A DNA stretch of 64,000 nucleotides, from positions 52,564 through 116,563 of IMG/VR virus record IMGVR_UViG_2802428818_000001; one strand, 5' to 3'. The stretch is from a virus (taxonomy: Duplodnaviria > Heunggongvirae > Uroviricota > Caudoviricetes). Below the pieces are notes generated by a model, which had not been told where the DNA came from, made no database searches, and saw only the letters and a program-made list of their open reading frames with translations. The translations under genes were made by a program, and so were the position numbers. Numbering within the stretch: the first letter of the stretch is position 1; every line of letters starts with the position of its first letter. Shown here piece after piece: positions 101 to 63,996 of this stretch.

Positions 101-120
101 AAGTAAATATTGATTGACTG
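101..120 (+). promoter_or_regulatory. family B motif AAGTAAATATTGATTGACTG
   Basis: 14 nt upstream of kinase ATG, sense orientation. Confidence 0.55.
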
Positions 121-133
121 CACAGGAGCAAAC

Positions 134-700
134 ATGAGCAATCCCACCCCCTACCCCAAACTGATCGCCCTTTGTGGCAACCCGACCTCGGGCAAATCGA
201 CCGCGGCCAACATCATCAACGACCTCTACGGCCACAAGCTCGCCGACGATGGCCTCGCCCTCCGCAAAATCGCTATGGATTACCTGGGACTGACCGCTGA
301 GCAGGTCTTCACCCAGGAAGGCAAGCTCGAATACGTCATGATCAACGGCCGGCGTTGGCAGGTTCGTGAGATCCTCGGCGAGATCGGCAATGCCTTCGAA
401 GAGAAGTTCGGTGGCGACATCATCCCGATTATGGCGCACAACGCCCAGCCCGAGGGGCAGTTCTCAGTCTTCGGGTCAGTGCGCCGCGAGCAGGGTCGCT
501 ACTGGAAGGAACAGGGCGCCCTCGTCCTCGAGATCATCAATCCCCTCGCCGGCCCGTCGCAATACGAGTTCGATACCTACAACCCGGCCTATGCCGATCA
601 TCAGATCCAGAACGATGGCCTGGCACGCGGCCTCTCGCCGGAAGAGGCTCGTCTCGATCTGATGGACAAGATCATTGCGATCGTGGGACCGGTGTTTTGA
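134..700 (+). CDS. P-loop nucleotide kinase, phage dNMP-kinase-like
   Basis: Walker A GNPTSGKST near N-terminus; AGGAG 8 nt upstream of ATG at 134; track ORF 110..700 trimmed. Confidence 0.5.
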   Translation: MSNPTPYPKLIALCGNPTSGKSTAANIINDLYGHKLADDGLALRKIAMDYLGLTAEQVFTQEGKLEYVMINGRRWQVREILGEIGNAFEEKFGGDIIPIMAHNAQPEGQFSVFGSVRREQGRYWKEQGALVLEIINPLAGPSQYEFDTYNPAYADHQIQNDGLARGLSPEEARLDLMDKIIAIVGPVF

Positions 701-738
701 TCCAGGTCTGGTATCAAAGCAAGAAGGTGGGCTCGCTG

Positions 739-1056
739 ATGATCAGCGTGCCTGCCTACCACAAAACGATCACTTTCACTGAGTTGTCGGACCCGGACGA
801 CCTGCATTCGCCCTTTAGCGAAAAGACGTTTTCGCTAATGACGCGCAACAATCTGGTCGACGAACGTGACCTGGCAGTGAGCGGCTGGGCGATCGAAACC
901 TATGTGACGCACCAGTTCGGCGTCGATCCGACGAAGTGCGAGATTCATCGGGACAATGCTGCTATGGGCTGGCGCGTCTCCTGGCGCATGATCGTCGCCG
1001 AGAACATCGACCAGTATGAATATCTGTTCGACAAGCGCGAGTTTATCGCCAACTGA
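739..1056 (+). CDS. hypothetical protein
   Basis: track ORF 697..1056 begins with TTG; ATG at 739 preceded by GAAGGTGGG. Confidence 0.45.
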   Translation: MISVPAYHKTITFTELSDPDDLHSPFSEKTFSLMTRNNLVDERDLAVSGWAIETYVTHQFGVDPTKCEIHRDNAAMGWRVSWRMIVAENIDQYEYLFDKREFIAN

Positions 1057-1065
1057 CTCTTGCAT

Positions 1066-1092
1066 GGCCGGTCACGCCGGCCTAAATAAATT
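1066..1092 (+). terminator. putative rho-independent terminator
   Basis: GGCCGG-TCACG-CCGGCC hairpin followed by TAAATAAATT. Confidence 0.5.
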
Positions 1093-1236
1093 CCCGGCGT
1101 GGCCCTAGAACTCTCTTCCGGCCCTGATCTCCCAAGATACCAGGACGGACGTGTCTAGTTCGTTGTTGACGCAAATGGGCCTCGCCACCCTCCTCTTCCA
1201 AATCCCGTAAAAGTTCGTTAACCATTAGGCGCTAGA

Positions 1237-1270
1237 GATTTAGCGATTTAACGACATAGGGATTTCGCGA
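1237..1270. promoter_or_regulatory. family A repeats (TTTAGCGATTTAACGA...GATTTCGCGAA) abutting parA start
   Basis: tandem/half-site copies immediately 5' of parA ATG. Confidence 0.55.
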
Positions 1271-4095: not shown

Positions 4096-4118
4096 CAGTC
4101 AGTCAATATTGATTGATC
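4096..4118. promoter_or_regulatory. family B CAGTCAGTCAATATTGATTGATC
   Basis: intergenic, upstream of 4044 gene (minus). Confidence 0.5.
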
Positions 4119-4454
4119 AAAATTGGGGATGGGTAGTCGGGAATTTGGGGATCTGGGCTCCGGGGCAGGGAAGCCGTGAGTTATAAGGTTTTGGCCGGAA
4201 GATTATAACCGACTACCCAGGTCAACATGTCCGTCCCGGTGAGGCACGAGGAGAGGTAGTCCAGGCCGGGATTTGCTCAGGCAGCAGGCGGCATCATGCC
4301 CAGCACACGCGAAAATCTCTAAGACTTCGATCGCTTCACAATTCAACACATGCACACTGACACGACGTTGCGCGAGGGATCGATCGAGCGTCTTTCGTGA
4401 GCAATGCAGCGCGCAAGCGTCTATGCGCTTGCATGAGCGTCTATGTGTCAATGC

Positions 4455-4476
4455 GAGTAAATCAGTATTGACTTAT
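4455..4476 (+). promoter_or_regulatory. family B variant GAGTAAATCAGTATTGACTTAT
   Basis: upstream of low-GC plus-strand unit. Confidence 0.4.
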
Positions 4477-4492
4477 ACATACATCAAAAATA

Positions 4493-4516
4493 ATTCGCGA
4501 TTTAGCGATTTAGCTA
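4493..4516. promoter_or_regulatory. family A ATTCGCGATTTAGCGATTTAGCTA
   Basis: about 80 nt upstream of 4596 gene. Confidence 0.5.
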
Positions 4517-4595
4517 TTGCATGACGTCGCGAACTAGTGTCTAAAGATCATGTCAACAACGACACTAGACAACAACACAGAAAGAGAGTTCTACA

Positions 4596-5162: not shown

Positions 5163-5239
5163 GATAGTCAATCAATCTTGATTTAGCTAGCGCGTGAGAG
5201 CGCGCTAGCAGTCGCAACAATCAACACAATCGAGACGTT

Positions 5240-5398
5240 CATGTTTATTCTGTATCTTCGCATAGTTGCAGCTCTGTCTAACACATATAGAGCGAACGCT
5301 GAATTGCAGCGCGCATTGCGCAAGCGTCAGAGTGCGCGCAAGTCTGCGAAGCGCGTCAGAGAGCAACGTCGTGCGATTGTGTCACGTTACAATTGAGA
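5240..5398 (+). CDS. small basic ORF (about 52 aa)
   Basis: read by eye (MFILYLRIVAALSNTYRANAELQRALRKRQSARK...); below ORF-track size cutoff; coordinates approximate. Confidence 0.2.
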
Positions 5399-5407
5399 GC
5401 TAGACAC

Positions 5408-5602: not shown

Positions 5603-5623
5603 TCGAAATCGCTAAAATGCTAA
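5597..5623. promoter_or_regulatory. family A variant GTCGAAATCGCTAAAATGCTAA
   Basis: just after 5602 stop. Confidence 0.4.
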
Positions 5624-5626
5624 GTT

Positions 5627-11818: not shown

Positions 11819-12175
11819 GTGCGCTTGTCTCTCTCGTTGTTGACAAGAAGACAGTAACAAGCGCGATCGCGGATTGCGGCAGGCAGAGCACGGCAGTTGA
11901 AAGCCATGGACGATCTGCTATATTGAGCAGGAGTGAGAGCCAGACAGCGGTAACTGCCTGACCCTCCCTTCGCTTAGGCTAAGATATGGACCCGGACGCG
12001 CACTGACCAGCCGATCCGGGTCTTTCTTATCTCAAGCGTGATTGCGATAGGTATCCCCATCTACATCACTCCTGTTCGAGGGCGAGGCACTCGCCTAGCT
12101 CGTGTGGCCCATCCTCACGAGCGCGCCGGCTGGTCTCGGCGCTTGCTGCTTTCGCCCTCGAATCGCTCGACTATA

Positions 12176-12457: not shown

Positions 12458-12974
12458 GTGCGTGTCTTTCAAGGTTGGCGATTGTTCATTGATCTCGCAC
12501 CGAGTAGGCGTTGCTCCTCGCGACCTGCCTTGGATGCAGTCCTACGAAGGGTGCGGATCGTGAGCAATCAAGCGATGGCTCTGTGACAATGCTCTCCGGT
12601 CGGCACGAGGCGGGCCATTGAAGCAAGGCTTACAGGTGGATTGATTTCACCCCGGATCTCTCAGCGAGTGGGCGACTATCGGACTCAGCATGGCGAGGCT
12701 TCCGGCTCCATCGCCTGCCTCTGTATCACCTATGCCTACCGCATGAGGGTAACGGATCCAAACCGAGCTATTTGCGGTCGAGGTAGCTACCCTCATCGTT
12801 CACATGGCGTTCTCACTGTTTGCGCTCTTTCTCGTTTCGTCTTCGATGATTTGTTATCGCATGTCTGCTTGCGGATTGCGGGAGGATCTCTTCGGCAGAT
12901 TCTTTTAGCAGATTCTAATAAGGCCCTTGGATTCGTCACTTGTTACACCTAAGTTGACGGGCCGGAGGTGCGTA

Positions 12975-14041: not shown

Positions 14042-14220
14042 ATTAACCCCTAGTTGACTTGCGCTGAGAGTAATAGCGAGCGCGCGAGGGGATCGCAACG
14101 GTCAAACTTCGCGTCAGGGATGGCGAAATCTAATGGATAACAAATCGCTGAAAGCATTGGTTAACAAATGGTAAACGGAAGTGGTAGGCTCAGTCGCTTC
14201 CGTTTGTCAGTCCGTCTCCT

Positions 14221-18652: not shown

Positions 18653-18672
18653 CTCAATCAATGTTGACTTAT
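18653..18672 (-). promoter_or_regulatory. family B (plus-strand text CTCAATCAATGTTGACTTAT)
   Basis: abuts start of 18642 gene. Confidence 0.5.
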
Positions 18673-18709
18673 CAAATGTCGCACATTGCGACAAGGATAT
18701 CGGCTGGAT

Positions 18710-18967: not shown

Positions 18968-19042
18968 GTTTTCCTCTTCTCGTTGCTTACAGTTCAGTTA
19001 TCGCACGCGATCATTCGGAATGATCTCGGGTGCGTTCGGTAG

Positions 19043-20588: not shown

Positions 20589-20610
20589 CAATCAATCAAT
20601 GTTTACTTAT
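20589..20610 (-). promoter_or_regulatory. family B (CAATCAATCAATGTTTACTTAT)
   Basis: sense form AAGTAAACATTGATTGATTG directly 5' of AGGAGAG SD of HD hydrolase gene. Confidence 0.55.
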
Positions 20611-20648
20611 CGCATGACGCGAGACGGATTGCGGGTGGAAGCTTGTGG

Positions 20649-21217: not shown

Positions 21218-21240
21218 TCAATCAATTTTTACTGACTGAC
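21218..21240 (-). promoter_or_regulatory. family B (TCAATCAATTTTTACTGACTGAC)
   Basis: upstream of 21170 gene. Confidence 0.5.
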
Positions 21241-22212: not shown

Positions 22213-22475
22213 TGGCGTCCTTTCTATTGCAATTTTTTAGGCATGTGTAACCTAAATGTTGTTTAGTCTCTTTGTTAAAATAGTCTGTTAGACATCGGGT
22301 TGCGCAAGTTTTTTTACGGCTCATCTTGCGGGAGATATAAGCGTCAGCTATTTGAGGCGAGCGACTGGGGGACCCTCTCGCACCATCCACACACATGAAT
22401 CCGGGTTGCCACAAGCCCCCGCATCGGTTAGGAATGTAATCCTAATCGCAACTGATAGTGAAAGAAGGAATATCG

Positions 22476-23015: not shown

Positions 23016-23149
23016 TTTTGCTCTCTCCGTAGTATAACGAGAGAACTTTCGCACAGTTAGACAAGGCATAACATTGGATCATTCTGGCACGGGCGCCATG
23101 GGATCGGTAAATAAAAACTTAATTATCAGAGCCCACTTTAAACGAGAGA

Positions 23150-25984: not shown

Positions 25985-26032
25985 GGATTTCCTTCCTTTC
26001 CTATGCGAGCGCCTTATGGGATGCGCCGCGGA

Positions 26033-26053
26033 GTAAGTCAATAATGATTGACC
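26033..26053 (-). promoter_or_regulatory. family B (GTAAGTCAATAATGATTGACC)
   Basis: upstream of lipoprotein gene 25984. Confidence 0.5.
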
Positions 26054-26867: not shown

Positions 26868-26956
26868 GTCTATCTCCTTTGCGAGTTCGTTCAAGTCGTT
26901 GTTTTCGCTTGCATTGTCTTTATAGCGCGTCATTGCTTGGAACTCGGTAGGATTAT

Positions 26957-29341: not shown

Positions 29342-29352
29342 GTCTTTCTCCT

Positions 29353-29372
29353 AAATCAATATTGACTGACTA
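29353..29372 (-). promoter_or_regulatory. family B (AAATCAATATTGACTGACTA)
   Basis: sense AGTCAGTCAATATTTAGGAGAAAGAC ATG, motif abuts SD. Confidence 0.55.
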
Positions 29373-31705: not shown

Positions 31706-34062
31706 GCTGCCTCCTTATGGGCGGTTGCGACCGTGTTGGCCGGGTTGTGTTTGTCAGTCAACTTTGACTGACTATTGCGGCGCTGAAGAAACTTGATCGT
31801 CTCGATCAGGTCGTCTGCCAGCTTTGAGTTTGGATCATATCTGTCGCCATTACCGATGATGTTCGCGCCGCGCAGAACGAAGAGGTATTCGAACCGCTTT
31901 TCCAGCGTCTCCGGACGCACCGACCTGAAGGTCTCGGCGCAGGCCTTGCGAAGACCGGCCGTTGCTTCACTGACGATTTTCCGCGTCTCTTCCGAGAGAG
32001 ACGTGATGTCTGTCACGAAGTCCCAGAGCATCGCGGCCTCTTTGTGCGCCTCACCAGGCGTTGCCTTGTCAGGGAAGAGGAGCTTGGCAATGCGCATATC
32101 CTTCTTCGACAGCTTCATGACCGCATCGCAGGCCGTGCCGCTGTAGAAGTCGTCGGACGACACCATGCGACCGTGCCGGATCGTCTCGCCGTAAACCACC
32201 TCGCGGAGCTTCGTAAGTTCGACCAGGCGCTCGGCTGCGACTTCCGCAAGATTACGAACGCCGAGCTTCTTGAGCTTCTCTTCCTGCCCCTTCGTCGTGA
32301 TCAGGACGGTGTTCGGGTATTTTTCGCCGATCTGCTTTTTCAGATGCCCGCTGAATGGCAGGCGAGGGCGCTCGTCACGCTGCCAGGTCATCAGGTAGAA
32401 GGCGGGCTCTGAGCATTTCGGCTCGACGTAGCTGTATTCGCTCTGATCCGCGACCGTGAGGTATTTATCCTCGGTCTTGACGCGCTTCGGCATTGCCTTG
32501 CGGTTCTGCTTCGCTTCCTCGTAGTCGAACACTTCCAGCTCGATCTTGAAGTGGGCGCACAGATCGCGCAGCGCCTTGAGGTTCTTCTCGGTCCACTGCC
32601 GCAGCACGACGCCGGCGATGTAGTTTTGAAGCCTATAGCTGAACCGATGGCTAATACCGCTCATAGTCGGTCGCAGGTCACGCAGATTACGCGCCACGCA
32701 CAACACCGGATGAACATTGCCCTCCTGCGAGAACTCACCGATTTTGCGCGTCTTAGGTCCGGACGTCTGATGGCGATGCCCGTGAGCGTCGAAGAGCATC
32801 AGATCCTTGAGTAGATCCATCTTCGACGCGATACGCATCATTGGCATTGCCGTGCGCCGGAAGTTGTGCTCGCTGGCCATCTCGTGGCGCTTCACTGCAC
32901 GCCGGAAGAAGCGCCGGTTATCACGGAAGATCTTCGCGGCGGCGCTATATTTCAGGCGCTTCGTCTCGATTGAGAGGTGATTGCGGGTATCCGTTCGGAT
33001 AGCATGGTAGGCGATCATGTCCGGTGTCGAGAGAACGCCAGGTGTAATTCTCTCCTCGCCGAGATAATCGTCCACACCTTGCACGCCCTTCTTTTTCACC
33101 CACTCGTTGATGTAACGCTTGGCTGCGACGGGAAGTGCCAGCTCAATCTGTTTGATCGCCTTGCTGAGCAGCCGCTTGACCGTTTGAGTTGTCAGTTCCG
33201 AGTAGGACAAGGCCTCACGGGAGGGTGTCACACCGACCGAGTTGGGCGGCGCGACGAGCAGGAGGGCTGTATTATCGCCGATCAGACGCACCGCCTTGTT
33301 CGCCAGATCCGAGATCTCACTGTCCGTTGTCGAGACCGGATAGATGACTGTGCCATAGAGCAAATAAACCCTGCCTTCGGGCAGGTGCACGTAAGGAATG
33401 GCGCAATATTCGGTCTCCCGCGCCACGGTATAGTCATAGCGTTCGATCGGCATGCCATTCAGATTAGCGAGCATGCCGCCCTGCCTCGCAACGAGCCGGA
33501 TATGGCCTTCGAACTCGTAGCGATCCTTCTTGTTGTGCAGTGGGATCGTCACGGTGATGCCGGTCTCGGTCGTCGGAACGCGAACCATCGGACGCATGTC
33601 GGGCTTACCGTCGGTCGCGGCACCACCGCGCGAGATCGCGTAGACCGTCTTAAAGCCGGCATGGCGATTGATGACGTTGAAGTGGTCGGTGACTGCGAAG
33701 GGCGACTTGGACCCGAGACCAAACCCACCGGTCTGGTTTTCGTCCTTCACCTTCGTGGACTTGCCGTAGATGCAATAGATCGGGCGCATCAACGCATCCG
33801 GGATGCCTGGGCCAAAGTCTCGGATCTCGATCTCGGTGTCGGTTACGGTAATCTCGACTGGCACATCAGTCTTGCCGACCATGATGTGCGCATCCCAGGC
33901 GTTGCAGATGGTCTCGCGCATCGCGGCGCGCTTCTTGTCGCGGTAGATGTTGTCGGAGAGGATGCTGTAGAACTCCGCATCGTCGGCCAGGCCGAACGCT
34001 TCGGGCTTACCACCACCGATGATGGCGTGAGTGTCTAGCTGCGCAATCTGCGAAACTTCCAT
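31702..34062 (-). CDS. GHKL-superfamily ATPase (rIIA-like)
   Basis: Bergerat motifs E-x3-NAWD, DFGPG, GGFGLGSKS in N-terminal 130 aa; 786 aa. Confidence 0.6.
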   Translation of the reverse strand: MEVSQIAQLDTHAIIGGGKPEAFGLADDAEFYSILSDNIYRDKKRAAMRETICNAWDAHIMVGKTDVPVEITVTDTEIEIRDFGPGIPDALMRPIYCIYGKSTKVKDENQTGGFGLGSKSPFAVTDHFNVINRHAGFKTVYAISRGGAATDGKPDMRPMVRVPTTETGITVTIPLHNKKDRYEFEGHIRLVARQGGMLANLNGMPIERYDYTVARETEYCAIPYVHLPEGRVYLLYGTVIYPVSTTDSEISDLANKAVRLIGDNTALLLVAPPNSVGVTPSREALSYSELTTQTVKRLLSKAIKQIELALPVAAKRYINEWVKKKGVQGVDDYLGEERITPGVLSTPDMIAYHAIRTDTRNHLSIETKRLKYSAAAKIFRDNRRFFRRAVKRHEMASEHNFRRTAMPMMRIASKMDLLKDLMLFDAHGHRHQTSGPKTRKIGEFSQEGNVHPVLCVARNLRDLRPTMSGISHRFSYRLQNYIAGVVLRQWTEKNLKALRDLCAHFKIELEVFDYEEAKQNRKAMPKRVKTEDKYLTVADQSEYSYVEPKCSEPAFYLMTWQRDERPRLPFSGHLKKQIGEKYPNTVLITTKGQEEKLKKLGVRNLAEVAAERLVELTKLREVVYGETIRHGRMVSSDDFYSGTACDAVMKLSKKDMRIAKLLFPDKATPGEAHKEAAMLWDFVTDITSLSEETRKIVSEATAGLRKACAETFRSVRPETLEKRFEYLFVLRGANIIGNGDRYDPNSKLADDLIETIKFLQRRNSQSKLTDKHNPANTVATAHKEAA
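31754..31773. promoter_or_regulatory. family B near-perfect 20-bp palindrome GTCAGTCAACTTTGACTGAC
   Basis: inside 5' region of GHKL gene / upstream of 31705 gene. Confidence 0.45.
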
Positions 34063-34095: not shown

Positions 34096-34115
34096 TCAAT
34101 CAATATTTACTGAAT
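34096..34115 (-). promoter_or_regulatory. family B (ATCAATCAATATTTACTGAA)
   Basis: about 35 nt upstream of GHKL ATPase ATG. Confidence 0.55.
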
Positions 34116-34156
34116 AGCACGCGCGCAGATGGGATGCGCGCGGCTATATCAGGCAG

Positions 34157-35497: not shown

Positions 35498-35527
35498 AGT
35501 AGTCAATCAATGTTTATTGACTACTCT
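35498..35527 (-). promoter_or_regulatory. family B embedded in 11-bp-stem hairpin GAGTAGTCAAT-N8-ATTGACTACTC
   Basis: hairpin followed on minus strand by TTTTTGTTTT then AAGGAG ATG. Confidence 0.6.
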
Positions 35528-35556
35528 TAGCGAAGAAAATCGTGGGATGCTACTGA

Positions 35557-38513: not shown

Positions 38514-38536
38514 CTCCTCAATCAAAGTTGACTTAC
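38514..38536 (-). promoter_or_regulatory. family B (CCTCAATCAAAGTTGACTTACTG)
   Basis: abuts GGAG SD of 38507 gene. Confidence 0.5.
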
Positions 38537-38745
38537 TGCGGTAAGGGATTCGAGCCCTTGGGGGCCAGCTACTTGACGGCAGCGCGCCATTTCGCCAGTC
38601 CTCTATCGCTGCTTCACCGTTAGACCACTCCGGCAACCGCAATTCTTAAATGGACAAGTTTGGTATCCCGCCGAGGAGTCGAACCCCTAAAACCTAAGCT
38701 CTGCGCAAAGCGTCGGTTCCTGCTCTCACAAGGCCACCCTCACTA
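38530..38745 (-). ncRNA. tRNA-like element(s): two T-arm + acceptor-3' motifs, one ending ACCA
   Basis: minus-strand GGGGTTCGACTCCTCGGCGGGATACCA and AAGGGCTCGAATCCCTTACCGCAG; second has pairing 5' TTGCGGT; full cloverleaf not closed by eye. Confidence 0.4.
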
Positions 38746-38947: not shown

Positions 38948-38965
38948 CTCAATCAATTTGGACTG
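38948..38965 (-). promoter_or_regulatory. family B variant (CTCAATCAATTTGGACTG)
   Basis: intergenic upstream of tRNA-like element. Confidence 0.4.
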
Positions 38966-39028
38966 TATCCGACGGTCACTTAGAACTTGGTCATCAACAC
39001 CTCTTTGTTCGTTTCGCTGCGCTTGTGT

Positions 39029-39068
39029 TCAATCAACATTTACTTACTAGCAAGCGCAGCGATGGGAC
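39029..39068 (-). promoter_or_regulatory. extended family B box (TCAATCAACATTTACTTACTAGCAAGCGCAGCGATGGGA)
   Basis: nearly identical 40-nt box to the one at 61129-61168; no CDS follows, only the tRNA-like element. Confidence 0.55.
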
Positions 39069-39082
39069 TCAAGCGCTATTTT

Positions 39083-42021: not shown

Positions 42022-42062
42022 GGTGTGTCTCGTGATGTTGAATTTGAAAGGGTGCCTATGCT

Positions 42063-42082
42063 AAATCAATATTTACTGACTG
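42063..42082 (-). promoter_or_regulatory. family B (AAATCAATATTTACTGACTG)
   Basis: between RuvC-like gene and nrdB stop. Confidence 0.5.
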
Positions 42083-43184: not shown

Positions 43185-43196
43185 TCAATCCTCGTT

Positions 43197-43216
43197 CAGT
43201 CAGTTTTTACTGACTG
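43197..43216. promoter_or_regulatory. family B hairpin CAGTCAGT-TTTT-ACTGACTG
   Basis: perfect 8-bp arms, 4-nt centre. Confidence 0.5.
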
Positions 43217-46736: not shown

Positions 46737-46795
46737 TGCGTCTTTCCTTAGTAATTTCAGTATCTTGACACTAGCGCGTCACGACATGGGATGCT

Positions 46796-47887
46796 TTAGG
46801 CATCTTCAGTGACCGCTCTGGCAGCAGTGAGCACGATGGCGCACTCGACCTTCAGGCGAGCCCGATCAACGAGCGTCGAAATGTCGGTGGCGCCATCGAT
46901 GAAGTTGGCGACGGACTCGTCAACGGTGACGGTGCCCTTCGAGACAGCGCCGGTGCGCGCGGACGCAGCCTGCTTCTTCGGCGCCATGATAACGACACCT
47001 TGGGCGCCGGAGTCGGCGAGGAACTGGCGCAGCTCGGCGATCTCGGCAGAGGTCATTTCGGGGCCGGAGTAGCGCACGTAGTTGCCGTCGGCCGCGAGAG
47101 CCATATCTTCAGCGTCCATACCGCTCAGATCGACAAAGCGCGGCGCATGCGTTGCTTGGAATGCGACCTTGCCCTTGTCATCGACGGACAGGAAGCCTGC
47201 CTTGGTGCCGACGTCGCCCCAGGTCTGGTGCGTGGTCGCGCCGATCGACCAGACATTGCCTGGAAGCTCTTTGTGATTGTGATAGTCGCCGGCAAAGACG
47301 TTCTGAAAACCGAAGTCAGAGAGCATGTCTGCCGTCAGGCCGTGGGGAGGGGTGTTGATCAAGACGCCATCGATACCGGCGTGAATGAAGACGTCCATAT
47401 GATCTGCGTGCGGGCTCTTGGCGAGCTCGGTGAGATCCTTCATCAGGAGCTCGGTCGTCATGCGATAGGGCACGAAACCGAGCACATGATCGTTATGAAT
47501 GGTGATGTCGCGCCGGTTGAAGACGTGAAACTCGCCGTGCTCGCTTTTCGTCTCCGAGAGCGTGAGCATGCCATTACCCAGGACCGTCGTGTCCTTGCCG
47601 GCCAGGTCATGATTACCAGGGATCGCAAGGATATCGAGCCCCATGTCGAGGATGCGCCTGACCGTCGCCTGAAGCGGATTGAGCACTTCCGGGTCGATCG
47701 AGCCGCGGACGTGCATGATATCGCCGGCACAGACGATGAATTTCGCGCCGATTTTCTTGGCGTAGGTCGCGGCGCGCATCAGCTCGTCGAGGATGATCTG
47801 CAAGCGGCCATTCACGCCGTTGACCGTGAAGGTCGAGAACGTCGACCACTTGTGTGCGTGAATATCGGAAACGATGACGTAGCTCAT
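46796..47887 (-). CDS. SbcD/Mre11-like nuclease (T4 gp47-like)
   Basis: MSYVIVSDIHAH metallophosphoesterase motif I, GNHD motif; trimmed from 46796..47974. Confidence 0.9.
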   Translation of the reverse strand: MSYVIVSDIHAHKWSTFSTFTVNGVNGRLQIILDELMRAATYAKKIGAKFIVCAGDIMHVRGSIDPEVLNPLQATVRRILDMGLDILAIPGNHDLAGKDTTVLGNGMLTLSETKSEHGEFHVFNRRDITIHNDHVLGFVPYRMTTELLMKDLTELAKSPHADHMDVFIHAGIDGVLINTPPHGLTADMLSDFGFQNVFAGDYHNHKELPGNVWSIGATTHQTWGDVGTKAGFLSVDDKGKVAFQATHAPRFVDLSGMDAEDMALAADGNYVRYSGPEMTSAEIAELRQFLADSGAQGVVIMAPKKQAASARTGAVSKGTVTVDESVANFIDGATDISTLVDRARLKVECAIVLTAARAVTEDA

Positions 47888-48477: not shown

Positions 48478-48488
48478 AATGTCTCCTG

Positions 48489-48509
48489 TAAGTCAGTTTT
48501 GATTGACTT
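48489..48509 (-). promoter_or_regulatory. family B (AAGTCAGTTTTGATTGACTTT)
   Basis: upstream of homing-endonuclease gene 48477. Confidence 0.5.
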
Positions 48510-48544
48510 TCTATCTTCTGAATAGCGCGTCACACACAGGGACG

Positions 48545-48563
48545 CAATCAATATTTACTGACT
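48545..48563 (-). promoter_or_regulatory. family B (CAATCAATATTTACTGACT) with GCGTCCC extension
   Basis: second copie 35 nt from the first. Confidence 0.5.
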
Positions 48564-51120: not shown

Positions 51121-51705
51121 TTACTTGTCATCAATGAAGTCAACGTCGTCCAGAAGGTCGCTGCCTGTGTCAGCAGGCGGCAAACCATCCTCGTCTAAAT
51201 CAGTATTGATTGACTGAACTGGACGTGGAGCAACGGCTGCTGCGGCCTTGGTCAGGCGCCCGCCGATGGCCTTCGCCAAAGTCTTGCCATCCATTTTCGA
51301 GGTATCGATGGGACCAGCCGGAAGAACCGGGGCTCGGGCTTCGATTTGCTCGGAACCTGGAAAGGTGATGCGCTCTTCCGGCGCCAGTCCCTTCCGCGGC
51401 GACTGATTATACCAAGTGACCTGGTATTTCGCCGGCATTTCAATGCTGTCGAGCGAGAAGTCGCCGTTTGTGGCCTTGGCGACGTCGCGGACCACGTCGA
51501 TTTTTTCCCAGATCTTCTTGATCGTCTCGGACAGGAAATACTGCGCCTTGGCGTAGTCGTCCTTCGAGATATCGTCGCCGTGCTTTTCAGCAACGCGCAG
51601 CAGGTCGCCGTAGCTCTTGCCGATCTTCTGGATGGCAGCCTCGAGCGCCTTCTTGGCTTCAGGCTTGGGATCAGCCGCCTTGGGCGTAGTGATCAGGTCA
51701 GACAA
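51121..51705 (-). CDS. hypothetical protein with acidic C-terminal tail (DDVDFIDDK)
   Basis: 194 aa; family-B-like sequence lies inside its 3' end. Confidence 0.5.
   Translation of the reverse strand: MSDLITTPKAADPKPEAKKALEAAIQKIGKSYGDLLRVAEKHGDDISKDDYAKAQYFLSETIKKIWEKIDVVRDVAKATNGDFSLDSIEMPAKYQVTWYNQSPRKGLAPEERITFPGSEQIEARAPVLPAGPIDTSKMDGKTLAKAIGGRLTKAAAAVAPRPVQSINTDLDEDGLPPADTGSDLLDDVDFIDDK
51196..51220 (-). promoter_or_regulatory. family B-like (CTAAATCAGTATTGATTGACTGAAC) inside coding sequence
   Basis: lies in 3' end of 51121..51705 gene, about 85 nt upstream of recombinase start. Confidence 0.35.
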
Positions 51706-54358: not shown

Positions 54359-54380
54359 AGTCAGTCAATTTTGACTGACT
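54359..54380. promoter_or_regulatory. family B perfect 22-bp palindrome AGTCAGTCAATTTTGACTGACT
   Basis: between 54417 stop and 54338 start. Confidence 0.6.
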
Positions 54381-54959: not shown

Positions 54960-55018
54960 GATCGTTCCTTTCGATCTGCATCAATAGAATAGCGCTTGCG
55001 AGCGCGGCTTACGGGTGG

Positions 55019-58664: not shown

Positions 58665-59194
58665 CAGCCTCTCCTCAGAACGATGGCGCCGTCGATGTTG
58701 TTGACCGCGCCGATATGGGTGAGCGCCTGGATCGCCATGCGCGCGTGACTGTCGGCCGTGCCTTCGGTCCAGCCGAGCTTGGTCGTGTAGGCGTAAGCGA
58801 GCGTCTGGCGATCGAGCGGCTGCTTCAGCTTCAGGAGCAGATGACCGGCGATCTTCAAGAAGTTCGACGAGGCTGCGAACGGATTGACGCCTTTGGCGAA
58901 GTTCTCGGTCACACGCAGATTGGAGCTGTCGAGCTTTTCAACGAGCGCCATGACCTTCTTCGGCACGGTCATTTCTGCGGGACCTGCCGTCGGCTTTTCA
59001 ACGAGCGGGTTCTTGGCGTCTTTATTACCCTTGCCCTTCACACCGACGCGCTCACGAAGGATCTCGAGATTGGTCAGGTGCAGCGGCTTGCACGCTTCTG
59101 CGAACTTGCAGACCGCGCACACCGGCGCCGTCTCCTCGTAAGCAAGCGCAGAGCCGAAGCAGCCAGGTGCAAAAGACGGAATGTAAGCTGTCAT
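58664..59194 (-). CDS. hypothetical protein with N-terminal Cys cluster
   Basis: CFGSALAYEETAPVCAVCKFAEAC. Confidence 0.5.
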   Translation of the reverse strand: MTAYIPSFAPGCFGSALAYEETAPVCAVCKFAEACKPLHLTNLEILRERVGVKGKGNKDAKNPLVEKPTAGPAEMTVPKKVMALVEKLDSSNLRVTENFAKGVNPFAASSNFLKIAGHLLLKLKQPLDRQTLAYAYTTKLGWTEGTADSHARMAIQALTHIGAVNNIDGAIVLRRG

Positions 59195-59832
59195 GCGGCG
59201 TTCCTTTGGACCTTCTCGGAGAGCTTGCGCAGCTCGGCGAGGATCTTCGTGCGTTCCGGGCGATCAGCGTCCATCAGACGGAACACAAACGCCGTCGTGA
59301 TCTGGCTGATCAGAATGTTTTGCGCTCCGATCTCTTTGGCCCAATCGGAGCGCGCTTTCAGTTGGCGCATCTGTTCAAGCAACTCGGGCGGCTGCTCGTA
59401 GAGGAGCTTCAGAAACAGCGAGGCGCGGGCGCTCAGCTTCCTCAGCGCCCAGGCGAGGTGCGTCTCTTCAGCCAGCTTGTCTTCGGCGCTGTCATCGCCA
59501 GATGCGATGATGTCGAGGAGCGAACCTTCGGAGCTGTCGTCGCCATTCATTGCGATCGGGGCGTCGAGGCTCTTGGCGCGCTCTTCGGCAATCCGCTTGA
59601 ACATCGTGCGGTTAAGGCCAAGCTTCGAGCGACGGATGCCCTCGAGCAGATAGGCCTTGAAGGGCACGCCGAGCGTCGGATCGAATGTGTCGCGTGCGCG
59701 GCACCAGACGATCCAAAGCTCTTGCTCGACGTCTTCATGGCTCATCGACGTTGCGCCGGAGCCATGAAGCTTTCTTGCGATCGACCAAGCGAGACGCCGG
59801 ATCAGATCGACGCTCTCCTTATGGTCGATCAT
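59191..59832 (-). CDS. sigma-70-family (ECF-sized) sigma factor
   Basis: region 2 pattern DLIRRLAWSIARK...ELWIVWCRARDTFDP and C-terminal region-4-like HTH. Confidence 0.65.
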   Translation of the reverse strand: MIDHKESVDLIRRLAWSIARKLHGSGATSMSHEDVEQELWIVWCRARDTFDPTLGVPFKAYLLEGIRRSKLGLNRTMFKRIAEERAKSLDAPIAMNGDDSSEGSLLDIIASGDDSAEDKLAEETHLAWALRKLSARASLFLKLLYEQPPELLEQMRQLKARSDWAKEIGAQNILISQITTAFVFRLMDADRPERTKILAELRKLSEKVQRNAA

Positions 59833-61091
59833 CAGGCGAAGTGCCTCTGAAGCACTTGTTCGACTGTCACCTGGTCGACGCGGGAGCAGCGGTTGGCGAA
59901 TGCGAGCTTGAAGCCGAGCGTCGGGTTATTGCCGAAGACGATGGTCAGCGATGCAGCGGTGATCAGCTCACGCGGCGAGATCGTCATCGACATTTCGCCC
60001 TTCGCGAAGCTCTCGCGAATGGCGTTCGCGACCTTGACGAACTTGTCAGCATCGGGCTTGCCGAGACCGGCCTTCGACCGCAGGACCAGAGCTTCCTGCT
60101 TCGGGTCCATGTATTTCACTTCCTCAGTGATGTGGAAGCGCGAATAGGACGCAGCATTCTGGATCATCGTGCCTTGGTAGAGGCCAGTCTCGTCGCCGAC
60201 GCCGTTGGTGTTACCGGTCGCGACGAAGCGAAAATCGGGATGCGGATGAATGACGCGCTGATCGATGGGCGCATCCTTGATGACAAGCGGCTTGCCTTCG
60301 AGCACCGGCTGATAGAGCGCGATCACGGACGGCATTGCGAAGTCGTATTCGTCAGCGCAGTAGACCATGCCGTATTTCATCGCCATCGCCAGCGGACCAT
60401 ATTGGAACTCGGTCACAGTCTGCGGCTTCTGCACGATGTGGATTCTGCCGTCGGCGCCGAGCTCCTGGCTGTCAGCCATCACCGTCTTGACTACATACTG
60501 TCCGAGAATGTGCGCCTCTTCGGTGTTGCCGGTGTGCTGGACGCGCAAGAACGCGCGGCCCGTGCGCGCGGCGCACTGCTCGAGGACAGTCGTCTTGCCA
60601 GTGCCGTGAAAGCCCCAGAGATAGACGTTCATGCCGAGTTCGAAGCCCAGGCAGACTTTCTTCACCAGGTCGATGTTGAAGACGTAGTCCGGATCGGTCG
60701 CCTGGATATAGGCAGCGGACTCGAGGTGATGTTCGGTGAGGCAGCGCAGCATGATCGGATTGTTGGTCGAGCTCAAGCCGGCCGACGCGTCGAGGCCGAA
60801 GATCTCCGACAGCGTCCGTTCGGTGAAAGCGAACGGCTGGTTCGGCTGCAAGGCGGTGGACGACTTCTTGCGCTGCTCGGCAGCTTCCCTGGCCTTTAGA
60901 GCGGCGCGCTTGCCGGTTTCGGACAGCATCGGCTGGCCCGGATACTTTTCCTTGTATTGCTCGATCGTCCATTCCGGATAGTTCTCGCGCAAATAGACGC
61001 GGATCGAGTGGCAACGACCACCGTCGATCGCGCAGGTAATCATGTCGTCGGTGGGGTCGGCTTGCACTGCTACGGCTGCTGCTGCTGTCAT
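59832..61091 (-). CDS. CobS-like AAA+ ATPase (AAA_5)
   Basis: Walker A GFHGTGKTT; GGAGACAGGAA ATG; trimmed from 59832..61133. Confidence 0.75.
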   Translation of the reverse strand: MTAAAAVAVQADPTDDMITCAIDGGRCHSIRVYLRENYPEWTIEQYKEKYPGQPMLSETGKRAALKAREAAEQRKKSSTALQPNQPFAFTERTLSEIFGLDASAGLSSTNNPIMLRCLTEHHLESAAYIQATDPDYVFNIDLVKKVCLGFELGMNVYLWGFHGTGKTTVLEQCAARTGRAFLRVQHTGNTEEAHILGQYVVKTVMADSQELGADGRIHIVQKPQTVTEFQYGPLAMAMKYGMVYCADEYDFAMPSVIALYQPVLEGKPLVIKDAPIDQRVIHPHPDFRFVATGNTNGVGDETGLYQGTMIQNAASYSRFHITEEVKYMDPKQEALVLRSKAGLGKPDADKFVKVANAIRESFAKGEMSMTISPRELITAASLTIVFGNNPTLGFKLAFANRCSRVDQVTVEQVLQRHFA

Positions 61092-61128: not shown

Positions 61129-61190
61129 CTCAATCAATATTTACTTACTAACAAGCGCAGCGATGGGACGCAATCAATATTTACTTACCG
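61129..61190 (-). promoter_or_regulatory. two tandem extended family B boxes (TCAATCAATATTTACTTACTAACAAGCGCAGCGATGGGACG / CAATCAATATTTACTTACC)
   Basis: upstream of CobS-like gene; first box nearly identical to 39029-39068. Confidence 0.6.
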
Positions 61191-61205
61191 ATTGCGCTTC
61201 CCTCG

Positions 61206-63674
61206 CTATTTCATGAGGATCTTTTTCAACTCACCCATGACGGCCTTCGGCAGCTCATCGACGGAGTTGAGGATCAGGTAGTTGTCGTAGAAGCGAGCCA
61301 CGGCCGAGGACTCGATGCCGATACCGACGAGATCGAAGCCCATCTTCGTCAGGCGCTCGACCATGTATTTCAGGTGTTCATCGTCACCGTCGGCGCCAGC
61401 GGGGAAGCCGTCGGAGAGCACGATGATCACCTTGCGCTTTTCCTTGCGCTTGGCGAGACGCATCGCAGCATATTCGAGGGACTCGCCGTCGATGTTGCCG
61501 CCCATGAATGGCTGAAACTTACGCTGATAGGCAAAGCGCTTCTTCACCTCGGCATTGATGCGCTCGTGGAACTCTTTGAAGATCGGCATGTAGATCGGAT
61601 ACACACGCGAGAACTTCACGCGGCTCTTGTTGACCTCGTTCTGAAGGTCGGCATTGAACTGGCGAATACGCGCTGCATTCAGCGGACCATCATCGCCATA
61701 CATCTGCGCCGTCGTGAAGCCCATGCACTCGGCAGGAATGTTGCAGCGCTCGAGAACCTGGGCGAGCGCATAAGAGGCAGACATTGCCGTCGCCATCGGC
61801 TTCTTCGACATCGAGCCGGAGCAGTCGGACAGCAGCGCAACGGCTGTGTCTTTGGCGCGGATCTCTTCGCGGCGCGAGAACACGCGGGGATCGCCAGCCG
61901 TCAGACGATGCAGGCCGGAGCTGTTGAGCCTGCCAGAGCGCTGCCCGGCGACGTTGAAGACGCGCGACTGCGCAGCCATCATGCGCTCGATGTCCTTCTG
62001 CATGACGCCAGTCAGTGCGCGGGTCTGCTCGTCGAGCTCCACGATGTGCTTGCTGTCGAAATTCTCCGGCACGTCCAGCGTCTTGATCACATCGTATTCA
62101 CGGGTGAAGACCGAATAGTCGGCCGCCCGGCACGCTTCGATCGCCTCCTTGACGATGATCTTGACCAGCGCCGACGAGAGATCCTTCTCCTCGAGCGCGT
62201 CGTCGTTCATTTCGGAGAAGGGGTTCTGGTTCGGATCGTAGCCGATACCTGCGACCTCGAGATCGTTCTCGCCGTCTTCGCCTTCACCGTCGGTGTCACC
62301 ATCGTCGTCGTGATCGCCGGTGTCTTCGATGGCGACGTTGCTCAGATCCGGTGAGCCGTTGGCTTCTTCGCCTTCCTGGCTCTCATCATCGGGATCAGAG
62401 CTTCCAGCGTCGCCGTTGCTTTCATCATCCCCTGCCTGATCAGGCTCGCCGCTTTCATCGGCGCTGTCTTCCATCTCAGCGGGCTCACCTTCACCCTCTG
62501 CATCAGAATTCTCTGCTTCCTGCCCAGCGTCAGCAGGCTCACCATCACTCGTGTCGCCTTCGTCCTGGTCATCGTCGTTGCCGTCGCCGGCACCATTCTG
62601 ATCATCGGCATCGTCAGCCGCGCCTTCTTGATCGTCCGCTTCGTCGGAGCCTTTTCCGTCAGCGTCACCGGCATCTTCTTCGCCAGCCTGATCGTCGTCG
62701 CTGCCATCTGCGCTTTCTCCGGCAGTGTCATCGTCGTCGCCATTGTTCTCATCGTCGGCTTTTTCTTCGCCTTCGCCGGAACCTTCGTTTTCACCGTCGC
62801 CGGCATCTTCTTCCTTCTCCTCTTCGTCAGACTCGCCTTCACCGCCCGAAGCGTTGTCGTTGTCTTCGGTGTGCTCGCGCTCACCGTCGCCTTCGCCGTC
62901 ACCGGTCTGTTCTTCGTCGGAGTGATCCTTGTCGTCTTCGCCGTCGGACTCTTCCTGATCGTCAGAGCCTTCACCCTGGCTGTCGTCTTCGTCCTGTTCT
63001 TCAGGCTCGGGCTGCGGCGGGGCAGGGGGCGGTGGTGGATAGAGGATGGCCTCGACCTCGAGCGCGATCTCGTAGGTCTCTTCGGTGGACGCGAGCAGCG
63101 GCATCTTCTTCTGCGACGCCTTGCTGAAGCGCTTCATGAACTCCTTGACCAGCTCATGATCCCAGTAGTTGTTGTCGTCCATGAACTCCTGGAACTCGGC
63201 GTGGCCGGCAAGCGCGCGCATCAAGACGACGAGGAGGTAATCGAACTCGTCCTGCTTCGACTGCGCCTTCGCGATCGCAACGGCCGTGACGTTCTGCAGG
63301 AAGTATTTGCCGAGGCGCGAAATGTTCTTCTTCGAGCCGGGAAACTCATTGCCCATCAGGCGCTCAATCATCGTGTCCTCGACGATGTTGTGCAGATTAT
63401 GCAGGCGGCGCGACTTCTCGTGAGCCTTGTAGAGGAAGTCGGTGAAGAGGACGTGGGCGACTTCGTGGTCGATAAAGCCCTGGATCGCGAAAACGAAGTC
63501 CGGCTCTGCGTTGTCGGGCAAGAGCGGAATGTTGACGCGGTAGGGAAGGCCGGTGACGGGGTGCGGCTGAACATAGGCTTGTGTGCCCATTTGCGTAACG
63601 GTCAAGCCTTTGCCTGCAAGCATCGGAATGATCTTCTTGATCGCTTCGCGAAGGATCACAATGTCGTTGTTCAT
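61206..63674 (-). CDS. CobT-like VWA-domain protein with giant acidic low-complexity region
   Basis: MIDAS DCSGSMS near C-terminus; about 250 aa of D/E/G/S repeats. Confidence 0.7.
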   Translation of the reverse strand: MNNDIVILREAIKKIIPMLAGKGLTVTQMGTQAYVQPHPVTGLPYRVNIPLLPDNAEPDFVFAIQGFIDHEVAHVLFTDFLYKAHEKSRRLHNLHNIVEDTMIERLMGNEFPGSKKNISRLGKYFLQNVTAVAIAKAQSKQDEFDYLLVVLMRALAGHAEFQEFMDDNNYWDHELVKEFMKRFSKASQKKMPLLASTEETYEIALEVEAILYPPPPPAPPQPEPEEQDEDDSQGEGSDDQEESDGEDDKDHSDEEQTGDGEGDGEREHTEDNDNASGGEGESDEEEKEEDAGDGENEGSGEGEEKADDENNGDDDDTAGESADGSDDDQAGEEDAGDADGKGSDEADDQEGAADDADDQNGAGDGNDDDQDEGDTSDGEPADAGQEAENSDAEGEGEPAEMEDSADESGEPDQAGDDESNGDAGSSDPDDESQEGEEANGSPDLSNVAIEDTGDHDDDGDTDGEGEDGENDLEVAGIGYDPNQNPFSEMNDDALEEKDLSSALVKIIVKEAIEACRAADYSVFTREYDVIKTLDVPENFDSKHIVELDEQTRALTGVMQKDIERMMAAQSRVFNVAGQRSGRLNSSGLHRLTAGDPRVFSRREEIRAKDTAVALLSDCSGSMSKKPMATAMSASYALAQVLERCNIPAECMGFTTAQMYGDDGPLNAARIRQFNADLQNEVNKSRVKFSRVYPIYMPIFKEFHERINAEVKKRFAYQRKFQPFMGGNIDGESLEYAAMRLAKRKEKRKVIIVLSDGFPAGADGDDEHLKYMVERLTKMGFDLVGIGIESSAVARFYDNYLILNSVDELPKAVMGELKKILMK

Positions 63675-63686
63675 GTCGCACTCCGT

Positions 63687-63707
63687 TCAATCAGTTTTGA
63701 TTGACTA
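63687..63707 (-). promoter_or_regulatory. family B (TCAATCAGTTTTGATTGACTA)
   Basis: 12 nt upstream of CobT-like ATG. Confidence 0.5.
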
Positions 63708-63716
63708 GTTATCGCA

Positions 63717-63947
63717 CTAAAAATCTTGGACTTCAAAAGGGAAGAGCAGGAGCCCGTCGCCCACAGCAGGGATGATGATGTGGATATTGCCGTGCTCGGG
63801 ATGCGTGCCGGCAAAGACGGTGACGCCGTTCGTGTCGGTTCTGACGACATTCGCCAAGCTACCTCCCTCTGCCCAGGCTACATCGAACGGAATTTCCTGG
63901 GTGGAGTTGCGGTGAGACTTGGTGATTGTCGCTGGTGTGTTCTGCAT
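63717..63947 (-). CDS. hypothetical protein
   Basis: trimmed to MQNTPATITK...; 24-bp perfect palindrome upstream. Confidence 0.45.
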   Translation of the reverse strand: MQNTPATITKSHRNSTQEIPFDVAWAEGGSLANVVRTDTNGVTVFAGTHPEHGNIHIIIPAVGDGLLLFPFEVQDF

Positions 63948-63972
63948 GATCCGTCCTTTGTCATGTCTTAAC

Positions 63973-63996
63973 CGATCAGTCAATATTGACTGATCG
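63973..63996. promoter_or_regulatory. family B perfect 24-bp palindrome CGATCAGTCAATATTGACTGATCG
   Basis: upstream of 63947 gene at window edge. Confidence 0.6.

Follow-up and report, generated by a model that had tools for sequence, protein, structure and literature searches.

The subject of this report is a near-palindromic box of about 20 bp that recurs between the genes of a Caudoviricetes virus, in a stretch of 64,000 nucleotides (the window; positions 52,564 to 116,563 of IMG/VR record IMGVR_UViG_2802428818_000001). The window contains 26 copies of the box, ten of which touch a separate promoter-like motif, and the sequence of the box follows the phage lineage. We give roughly an even chance of being right to the view that the boxes are operators or roadblock sites for a DNA-binding dimer encoded by the phage and conserved in its relatives. 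An earlier, sequence-only reading of the window had offered three roles, those of a phage-specific promoter, of an operator that a dimeric regulator would bind, and of a hairpin or processing site in RNA; the evidence favours the operator. The papers found on elements of this type do not describe the box.

The window, which has a G+C content of 58%, belongs to a family of siphovirus-type phage-plasmids (PMC4447125, PMC12509600). It shares 78-81% nucleotide identity with Rhizobium phage RHEph10, the relatives of that phage and a Pararhizobium qamdonense plasmid of 115.6 kb; it is antiparallel to RHEph10, spanning roughly 104 kb down to 35.6 kb of that genome. Plasmids of ~117 kb from Rhizobium beringeri, Shinella, Sinorhizobium sp. 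LM21 (pLM21S1) and Methylobacterium are related more distantly. The family encodes RepC, a ParA/ParG-like pair, a DnaE-type polymerase, CobT/CobS-like proteins, rIIA/rIIB, ribonucleotide reductase, RecA and its own sigma factor. Almost all window genes from 2.2 kb onward lie on the minus strand, and the large open reading frames (ORFs) are DnaE, CobT-like, SbcC-like, RtcB and RecA.

The box was modelled with a position weight matrix (PWM), built from the copies listed in the sequence-only reading and refined iteratively, at a cut-off of at least 20 bits. The motif is present at all 24 of the coordinates listed, and the window holds 26 copies compared with 0.02 expected in Markov-1 random windows; exact and near-exact searches with the core returned 3 and 15 matches (0.02 and 0.09 expected). 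The two copies absent from the earlier list are at 5166-5185 and, weakly, at 23106-23125; the copy at 38949 is also weak. The intergenic placement claimed for the box is borne out, as 24 of the 26 copies lie outside called genes while intergenic DNA makes up only 16% of the window (binomial P = 3e-17). The two 'coding' copies (31754 and 51196) precede the next start codon by 48 and 7-85 nt, respectively. The boxes are also conserved in place. A copy is found at the projected orthologous position in RHEph10 for 22 of the 26, or 23 if 48544/RHEph10 50500 is counted, with flanks that are only 70-87% identical. Genome-wide, RHEph10 carries 39 copies, its structural module included, and pLM21S1 carries 41, all of them intergenic.

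In the modules for replication, nucleotide metabolism and structure, almost all of the larger intergenic gaps contain a box (~40 copies per genome). The distance from box to start codon peaks at 9-12 nt, but the statement that almost all copies stand immediately 5' of a Shine-Dalgarno (SD) sequence and start codon was too strong: only ~16-17 of the 26 are within 50 nt upstream of a start codon, and those further away precede a promoter-like motif or a hairpin. A 13-kb region of ~30 small genes (5.2-18.6 kb) is free of boxes and has several of the bipartite promoter motifs described below. Such box-free small-gene stretches recur in RHEph10 (81.5-99 kb) and in pLM21S1 (53-63 kb, with a GCTAAAAC variant of the -10), and the window stretch at 5200-18600 looks like a gene class exempt from box control. 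No box lies directly upstream of repC or parA. Stop codons in all three frames (TAA, TGA, TGA) occur within the box, which we judge a by-product.

The boxes of the family are of three types whose 20 positions align one to one. Type A (AGTMAGTMAATATTGAYTGA; AGTMAGTMAAT-ATTGAYTGA in gene orientation) is a ~20-bp dyad found in the window, RHEph10, N1_10, Pararhizobium p5 (P. qamdonense T808) and Phyllobacterium. Each box has two ~8-bp half-sites with centres 11 bp apart, about one helical turn. Of the copies described earlier as perfect palindromes, 63973-63996 is indeed perfect over 24 bp, whereas in 54359-54380 and 43197-43216 the arms are perfect but the centre is not palindromic. Type B (AGTAAGTAAG-N2-CTTACTTA, also given as TAAGTAAG-N2-4-CTTACTTA) occurs at orthologous places, for example upstream of nrdB and rIIA, in pLM21S1, a Shinella plasmid and Rhizobium phage X66. 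Only the arms are kept in this type, and the variability of the centre shows that the TAAATATT '-10' proposed for the box is not a feature of the family. Type C (GTCAGTMAA-N4-TGACTKA) comes from an IMG/VR relative with 45% sigma identity. Phages of Rhizobium phaseoli include both type A (N1_10) and type B (X66); as the two types share this host, specificity follows the phage, not the host. A scan of 185,579 genomes with the strict type A consensus found 7 loci, two of them rhizobial, one on a 118-kb contig of phage-plasmid size, which rules out a host regulon site. Among the known consensus sites of host factors (IHF, FNR/FixK, CtrA, RirA, the nod box and GANTC methylation), none appears to fit. 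The way in which box type tracks phage lineage, together with the rarity of the consensus in host genomes, points to a recognising factor that is phage-encoded, family-wide and co-evolving with its sites.

The bipartite motif, which is distinct from the box, reads C-CGCAnTCC-N12-GCGATAA/GCTATTC in the window, where it has 16 predicted intergenic sites, 8 with boxes and 8 without; its counterpart in pLM21S1 is GCACTCCAA-N10-GCTATAA at about 22-30 sites (L004-L006). Its sites are restricted to early and replication regions, and it has no TTGAC -35 of the host type. A PWM trained solely on the pLM21S1 sites gave 9-10 matches in the window at 12-13 bits or more compared with 0.8 expected, and the 7 intergenic ones are all on the gene strand. 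Refinement of this PWM on the window and RHEph10 let it drift into coding false positives, and only intergenic, gene-strand matches were kept. The obvious candidate to read the motif is the product of the sigma gene at 59191-59832 (minus strand), correctly identified in the sequence-only reading. This 213-residue protein matches Pfam Sigma70_r2 (6e-9) and PHROG 351 (residues 12-189) and is conserved in 10 of 10 related phages. It probably recognises the bipartite motif, which is thus a candidate consensus for the phage sigma factor. The protein has no match among PDB sequences, and a search of IMG/VR with it returned one relative only, that with 45% identity. A phage RNA polymerase was considered as reader, and none was found among the large ORFs of the window or in the annotations of its relatives.

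Ten of the 26 boxes touch a bipartite motif. Eight of these begin at offsets of -7, -6, 0 or +11 from the 3' end of the motif, and in two the right arm is on the -35 side. Similarly, in pLM21S1 a palindromic box starts 0-7 nt after GCTATAA at ~15 of ~22 promoters. The offset varies between orthologous sites. Upstream of rIIA the box of the window is at offset -6, overlapping the -10, and that of pLM21S1 lies 5 nt after the GCTATAA -10, while the box of the metallophosphoesterase gene is at +11 in the window compared with +5 in RHEph10. This supports the view that the box is an independent module placed over the footprint of RNA polymerase and not a part of the promoter. With the -10-like hexamer set at -12 to -7, the downstream boxes would cover positions from about -12 to +8 up to +7 to +26, and the two upstream boxes would be centred near -41.5. 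The argument that the position of the box leaves no room for a -35/-10 pair is true of the DNA downstream of it, but is beside the point, since the motif overlaps the box or stands on its upstream side. The supposedly identical 40-nt extension of two copies (39029 and 61130) is explained in the same way: the shared stretch is real, although identical at ~39 of 41 positions, and consists of the upstream promoter-like motif plus the box.

The boxes were also described as sense-oriented to their genes. This holds for 40 of 52 co-directional contexts in the window and RHEph10 (P = 1e-4), with orientation set by the flanking genes, two genomes that are not independent and a box that is nearly symmetric. 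The bias is, however, uneven. Promoter-linked boxes are split 18:1 with and against their genes and promoter-less boxes 22:11, while in the structural region of RHEph10 6 are with and 7 against. Several of the antisense copies in that region sit between a stop codon and a terminator. The arrangement of stop codon, antisense box and intrinsic terminator is seen after highly expressed structural genes (major capsid, tail) at RHEph10 455-570, 2725-2830 and 7548-7648, at pLM21S1 83964 and 88514, and at Shinella L007 19781; at RHEph10 7573 a box arm forms part of the terminator stem.

It is distinctly unlikely that the box is itself a phage-specific promoter, that is, a TAAATATT-centred 20-mer read by host RNA polymerase with a phage sigma or late factor, with transcription starting at or past its 3' end to give very short leaders. 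Positions 8-13 of type A (MAATAT) do resemble CTATAT, the alphaproteobacterial -10 consensus, and a start near box position 20 would leave the SD intact. The orientation bias and the presence of a sigma gene would also suit a promoter, and the structural region, where there are boxes and no bipartite motif, leaves late promoters still to be accounted for. Against this, the centre is unconserved in type B genomes, there is no conserved element at a constant distance upstream, the separate -35/-10-like motif is a more natural sigma target with boxes on top of it at variable offsets, and the structural boxes of RHEph10 are of mixed orientation, with antisense copies before terminators. A role in RNA, as a 5' untranslated or intercistronic hairpin or a single-stranded motif that a phage RNA-binding protein or nuclease would use as a translational operator, processing site or stabiliser, is also quite unlikely. 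The gene strand commonly offers a G6.U17 pair (G/T in 40 of 65 type A copies), although the near absence of A/C at these positions is partly an artefact of PWM-based orienting. In 20 of 24 copies the fold of the sense strand is better than that of the antisense, fold z is below -3 in 8 of 25 (median -1.9), compensated stems at 98 (which sequesters the SD) and 35503 (a terminator) show that pairing is possible, and the 9-12 nt distance to the start codon would be apt. The low z values are, however, driven by locus-specific flanks, typical copies folding like shuffles (z of -0.06, -1.4, -1.5 and +0.24), and the arms do not covary. The 25 window copies have 73.3% of cells paired, a figure that 467 of 500 column shuffles equalled or exceeded (75.1% in the shuffles), and they score 0.098 for covariation compared with 0.105 after shuffling. 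A.G mismatches occupy two stem positions in about half of the copies; within the 65 type A boxes positions 8/15 are A.G in 31, and the odds ratio at positions 4/19 is 0.32, the wrong direction for pairing. The flanks are complementary beyond chance expectation at only a few loci of type A (P about 0.001-0.02) and not in pLM21S1, so flank complementarity was rejected as a general feature, and Rfam 15 at gathering thresholds has no match in the window. In addition, the predicted start falls inside promoter-linked boxes, so that their left arm would be absent from the RNA. A general hairpin or processing site is thus not supported, and the few loci at which it is part of one (35503, 98 and 42062) are read as local co-option of the palindrome.

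Two further explanations accept the box as DNA. It may be the site of some other protein, either a ParB-family (KorB-like) global regulator or partition protein, or a dual temporal regulator that would activate some promoters and shut off others; we consider this unlikely. The family encodes two ParB_N-domain proteins besides the ParA/ParG-like pair, two upstream boxes are centred at about -41.5, the classical class II activator position, the promoter of the candidate helix-turn-helix (HTH) gene discussed below is phage-type, and the phages were isolated as plaque formers. ParB-family proteins, however, usually have few sites, in clusters, the TTAGCGATTTAGC iterons are the more likely target of the ParA/ParG pair, and at the sequence level this alternative is indistinguishable from the repressor model. 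It is highly improbable that the boxes are repeats of a selfish or structural kind without any part in regulation, such as recombination linkers at gene boundaries or miniature mobile palindromes. Placement at gene boundaries could promote module exchange, and the 17-bp palindromes that Cluster O mycobacteriophages carry still lack an explanation (PMC4351075). Such repeats would not, however, be expected to keep their positions and sequence across lineages diverged to 33-45% sigma identity, to stand in a precise relation to a promoter motif, or to shift their consensus in concert between lineages.

In the favoured reading, operators and roadblocks, each box would be a double-stranded-DNA site for one sequence-specific, probably dimeric, regulator encoded by the phage-plasmid family. 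Bound at a promoter box (-12 to +26, with a second near -41.5 at two promoters), the protein would block initiation, and would thus act by repression rather than activation. The promoter-less boxes, between co-directional genes or just before terminators, would be roadblocks to elongation similar to 'stoperators'. Overall, lytic functions would be silenced throughout the genome in the plasmid prophage, or else be subject to a temporal shut-off, and, as two boxes flank the promoter motif of the CobS-like/sigma operon, the supply of sigma factor would come under the same regulator. A more elaborate version, rather unlikely in our judgement, has one regulator acting on both DNA and RNA through ~40 boxes that would serve as operators of phage-sigma promoters, intra-operon roadblocks and parts of terminator or SD-sequestering hairpins, with the switch between types A and B defining immunity groups.

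The most likely binder, and a candidate named from gene context, is a Cro/CI-type (XRE) HTH protein (gp041, YP_009352298, in RHEph10; WP_276122594 in Pararhizobium). Every member of the family encodes it next to RepC and a ribbon-helix-helix (RHH) gene, and in the orientation of the window its gene lies just beyond the right end (coordinate 64000). Boxes flank the gene, the upstream one being ~25 nt upstream of its bipartite promoter and not on it. The two ParB_N-domain proteins are alternative candidates. A Ros/MucR-like N-terminus of the CobS-like ATPase was also considered as binder and rejected, as the match is sub-threshold and was not reproduced in pLM21S1. In the window this CobS/MoxR-like AAA+ ATPase (59832-61091, minus strand) has in its N-terminal ~80 residues a Ros/MucR zinc-finger match of E 5e-5 as an isolated domain, and the match is weaker in RHEph10.

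Several observations weigh against this interpretation. The half-sites differ systematically (T-M-A-G-T-M-A-A on the left, T-C-A-A-T-C-A-A on the right), and an asymmetry that tracks gene direction (77%) is not predicted by a simple homodimer site. The combination of G6 and T17 on the gene strand would resemble a G.U pair in RNA. This preference and the half-site asymmetry are the main loose end of the operator reading, although overlap of the left arm with the -10 (GCTAGTAAGT, GCGATAAGT, GCTATTCAGT) may explain part of the latter. Some loci do have genuine compensated hairpins that include the box, and many boxes abut the SD at minimum spacing, which would suit a translational operator too. 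The promoter motif and transcription start positions are themselves predictions. With respect to the binder, the promoter of the HTH gene is of the same bipartite type, and if the phage sigma factor is off in lysogens then the HTH protein could not be a classical lysogeny repressor. Finally, recognition-helix residues, when compared with box type, gave no clean pattern, pLM21S1 (KNQ) and X66 (SNP) both having type B boxes.

Several known systems resemble the boxes in part, the nearest being the L5/Cluster A operators and stoperators, the P1 C1 operators and the Cluster O palindromes. P1 is also a plasmid prophage, and its master repressor C1 acts at many operators dispersed round a genome of similar size (~90-115 kb), but its operators are 17-bp asymmetric sites, there is no similarity in sequence or protein, and replication here is of the RepC type. 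In IncP plasmids KorB, a ParB-family global regulator, binds the palindromic OB at ~12 copies per plasmid and at varied positions relative to promoters, as the boxes are, but OB is 13 bp, the copy number here is 3-fold higher, and the ParB_N proteins are only candidates as box binders. Box 35503, a terminator-like stem, and boxes 98 and 42062, within strong hairpins, recall intrinsic terminators and phage RNase III sites, in contrast to most boxes, which fold no better than shuffles and do not covary. Cluster O mycobacteriophages have >30 copies of a 17-bp dyad, TGTTCGG-N3-CCGAACA, many between ORFs or near the 5' ends of genes (PMC4351075). That repeat is likewise palindromic, genome-wide and variable at its centre, but it differs in sequence, its arms are invariant, a third of the copies are inside ORFs, and neither an orientation signal nor an association with promoters is reported. 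The operators and stoperators of L5 and Cluster A phages share the many copies of one short site, in promoters and intergenic gaps, and the consensus that differs between lineages. The L5 repressor has >20 sites in promoters and short intergenic spaces, whose orientation correlates with transcription and at which both the initiation of transcription and its elongation are proposed to be halted (PMC9283540). The L5 site is, however, a 13-bp asymmetric sequence bound by a two-domain monomer (PMC9283540), whereas a dimer would be expected on the 20-bp dyad. The present system also differs in its weaker orientation bias, alphaproteobacterial host, plasmid prophage state and promoters apparently read by a phage sigma. 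The box is thus an analogue, and not a member, of the L5 family. Its mode of action would resemble that of the L5 and P1 sites, but as a 20-bp dyad without homology to those asymmetric sites of 13-17 bp it belongs to neither family.

The bipartite motifs are all on the minus strand. Those without a box, mostly in the 5-19 kb small-gene region, are at 11850..11882, 12852..12884 (CTCCCGCAATCC-N12-GCGATAACA), 14069..14101, 18996..19028, 22276..22308, 26918..26950 (CTACCGAGTTCCAAGCAATGACGCGCTATAAAG, the top score at 25.1 bits with the PWM trained on pLM21S1 only), 46767..46799 and 54985..55017. The other eight are described with their boxes, from left to right along the window. Box 98..117 (plus strand; AGTAAGTAAATATTGATTGA; 37.8 bits) ends 16 nt before the ATG at 134. 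It lies in an extended 13+3-bp hairpin (88-129; -26.1 kcal/mol, z -5.7) whose 3' arm holds the AGGAG SD, and which shows a compensatory G-C to T-A change relative to RHEph10 104326. Box 4097..4116 (plus; AGTCAGTCAATATTGATTGA; 39.3 bits), in a divergent region, is orthologous to RHEph10 100234 and is followed by GGGGATGGGTAG, the conserved start of a small unannotated ORF. The conserved start, GG(G/A)GATGGGTAG, opens a small glycine-rich ORF (window 4117-4200, plus; RHEph10 about 100150-100233, minus) on the strand opposite to the annotated RHEph10 genes, probably an unannotated gene. Box 4458..4477 (minus; TATAAGTCAATACTGATTTA; 27.9 bits) adjoins the TTAGCGATTTAGC iterons, and RHEph10 has no box at the orthologous place. 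Box 5166..5185 (plus; AGTCAATCAATCTTGATTTA; 28.8 bits; orthologue RHEph10 99170) is directly followed by the hairpin GCTAGCGCG-N5-CGCGCTAGC.

A second repeat family, TTAGCGATTTAGCGAAAT, is found in this part of the window as direct and inverted copies (~60-95, 4494-4521, 5604-5623, 6102-6129 and 6494-6521), near the ParA/ParG-like genes and within the divergent region at about 4.5-6.5 kb. The repeats, which have similar TAGCTA/AATCGCTAA counterparts in RHEph10 and pLM21S1, may be iterons or a centromere.

Beyond the box-free region, box 18654..18673 (minus; GATAAGTCAACATTGATTGA) starts at offset 0 after motif 18674..18706, with an ATG 11 nt downstream, and box 20592..20611 (minus; GATAAGTAAACATTGATTGA) overlaps the -10 of motif 20605..20637 (offset -7), with an ATG 17 nt downstream. 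Box 21218..21237 (minus; AGTCAGTAAAAATTGATTGA) has a terminator-like hairpin before it and GCGCTATCAG after it (fold z -4.95). The doubtful copy 23106..23125 (plus; GGTAAATAAAAACTTAATTA) is weak at 22.2 bits and has no orthologue. Box 26032..26051 (plus; AGTAAGTCAATAATGATTGA), adjacent to a hairpin, is antisense to the flanking minus-strand genes, and its orthologue, RHEph10 73366, has the same inverted orientation. Box 29352..29371 (minus; AGTCAGTCAATATTGATTTA; RNA fold z -0.06) runs directly into GGAG-N6-ATG, and a promoter-like CACTTCCAAT-N10-TTATAGT was seen by eye upstream of it. Box 31754..31773 (minus; AGTCAGTCAAAGTTGACTGA; orthologue RHEph10 67618) is within the 3' end of rIIA, with the start of rIIB 48 nt further on, and upstream of rIIA itself box 34096..34115 (minus; ATTCAGTAAATATTGATTGA) overlaps the -10 of motif 34110..34142 (offset -6).

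Box 35503..35522 (minus; AGTCAATAAACATTGATTGA) forms the stem of an intrinsic terminator and abuts motif 35523..35555 (offset 0), the 3' end of which is the 5' arm of the hairpin. The hairpin described at 35498-35527 is real, but its stem has 13 bp and not 11, followed by UUUUUGUUUU; the loop is 8 nt, there is a U-run, and the fold (-19.2 kcal/mol, z -4.2) has two compensatory pairs relative to RHEph10 63889. The idea of a combined terminator and promoter is correct in outline, although the promoter is predicted to be the bipartite motif and not the box. As the 5' arm lies in the -10 of this motif, read-through transcripts would end at the terminator while those starting from 35523 would not.

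Box 38518..38537 (minus; AGTAAGTCAACTTTGATTGA) is directly followed by GGAG, with an ATG 10 nt downstream. Abutting it upstream is a tRNA-like T-arm/acceptor remnant (GGCTCGAATCCCTTACCGC; 38538-38580, minus); RHEph10 and X66 have a tRNA-Cys at the matching place, and ARAGORN found no tRNA in the window. Box 38949..38968 (minus; ATACAGTCCAAATTGATTGA; 22.2 bits) has no box at the orthologous place in RHEph10. Box 39029..39048 (minus; AGTAAGTAAATGTTGATTGA) overlaps the -10 of motif 39043..39075 (offset -6). Downstream of it (38985-39028, minus) a good SD precedes a mini-ORF of 4-5 codons, ATG ACC AAG TTC TAA, and RHEph10 60418-60445 has an equally short one, ATG AAG CGC CTT TAG. Box 42062..42081 (minus; AGTCAGTAAATATTGATTTA), upstream of nrdB, is enclosed by a copy-specific stem, GCCTATGC/GCATAGGC, with flank complementarity of 8/8 (-18.1 kcal/mol, z -5.5) that is conserved in RHEph10 57394. 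Box 43196..43215 (minus; AGTCAGTAAAAACTGACTGA) lies 11 nt upstream of an ATG.

Motif 48518..48550 is flanked by two boxes. The near-symmetric 48487..48506 (plus; AGTCAATCAAAACTGACTTACA on the gene strand) is downstream, 11 nt after the motif and 9 nt before the ATG at 48477, and 48544..48563 (minus; AGTCAGTAAATATTGATTGC), with a terminator upstream, has its right arm on the -35-side end. Box 51196..51215 (minus; AGTCAATCAATACTGATTTA) is just upstream of recA (ATG at 51188 or 51110). The symmetric box 54359..54378 (plus; AGTCAGTCAATTTTGACTGA(CT)) scores 33.1 and 31.9 bits on the two strands, has a fold z of -4.1 and lies 20 nt before the minus-strand gene 54087-54338. Motif 61144..61176, the predicted driver of the CobS-like/sigma operon, is again flanked by two boxes, 61130..61149 (minus; AGTAAGTAAATATTGATTGA), which overlaps the -10 (offset -6), and 61170..61189 (minus; GGTAAGTAAATATTGATTGC) on the -35 side, 40 bp away centre to centre. 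This dual arrangement is repeated in RHEph10 (38513/38553) and in the Pararhizobium plasmid. Box 63687..63706 (minus; AGTCAATCAAAACTGATTGA) is at offset 0 after motif 63707..63739 (23.0 bits with the pLM21S1-only PWM), with the CobT-like ATG 12 nt on. Lastly, box 63974..63993 (plus) is the core of the perfect 24-bp palindrome CGATCAGTCAATATTGACTGATCG. It lies 26 nt upstream of gene 63717-63947, and its counterpart in relatives sits between the XRE HTH gene and the gene matching 63717-63947.

Two other features were noted. The DnaE-type polymerase (55019-58432, minus; 1137 residues) has a C-terminal domain of the uracil-DNA-glycosylase superfamily (Pfam UDG, residues 984-1119, E 7e-10). In three lineages an inverted repeat with ~20-bp arms (for example CCCGTCCATTCACTGTCATA ... 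TATGACAGTGAATGGACGGG) and an AT-rich centre lies upstream of a small-terminase-like gene, outside the window (pLM21S1 78100-78190, Shinella L007 13990-14080, RHEph10 110598-110690 and about 96068-96130). Its centre holds a box in pLM21S1 and Shinella, one arm recurs elsewhere, and the possible roles of the repeat are those of a late promoter, packaging site or origin.

Phage-plasmids of the RHEph10/pLM21S1 type are widespread in Rhizobium, Sinorhizobium, Shinella, Pararhizobium and Phyllobacterium. If the boxes are operators and roadblocks, they would provide a map of the regulated genes of these elements and would separate regulated from unregulated promoters. Phages of types A and B that share a host would then be predicted to be heteroimmune, and the box and its regulator would offer a handle for repressible expression tools in rhizobia.

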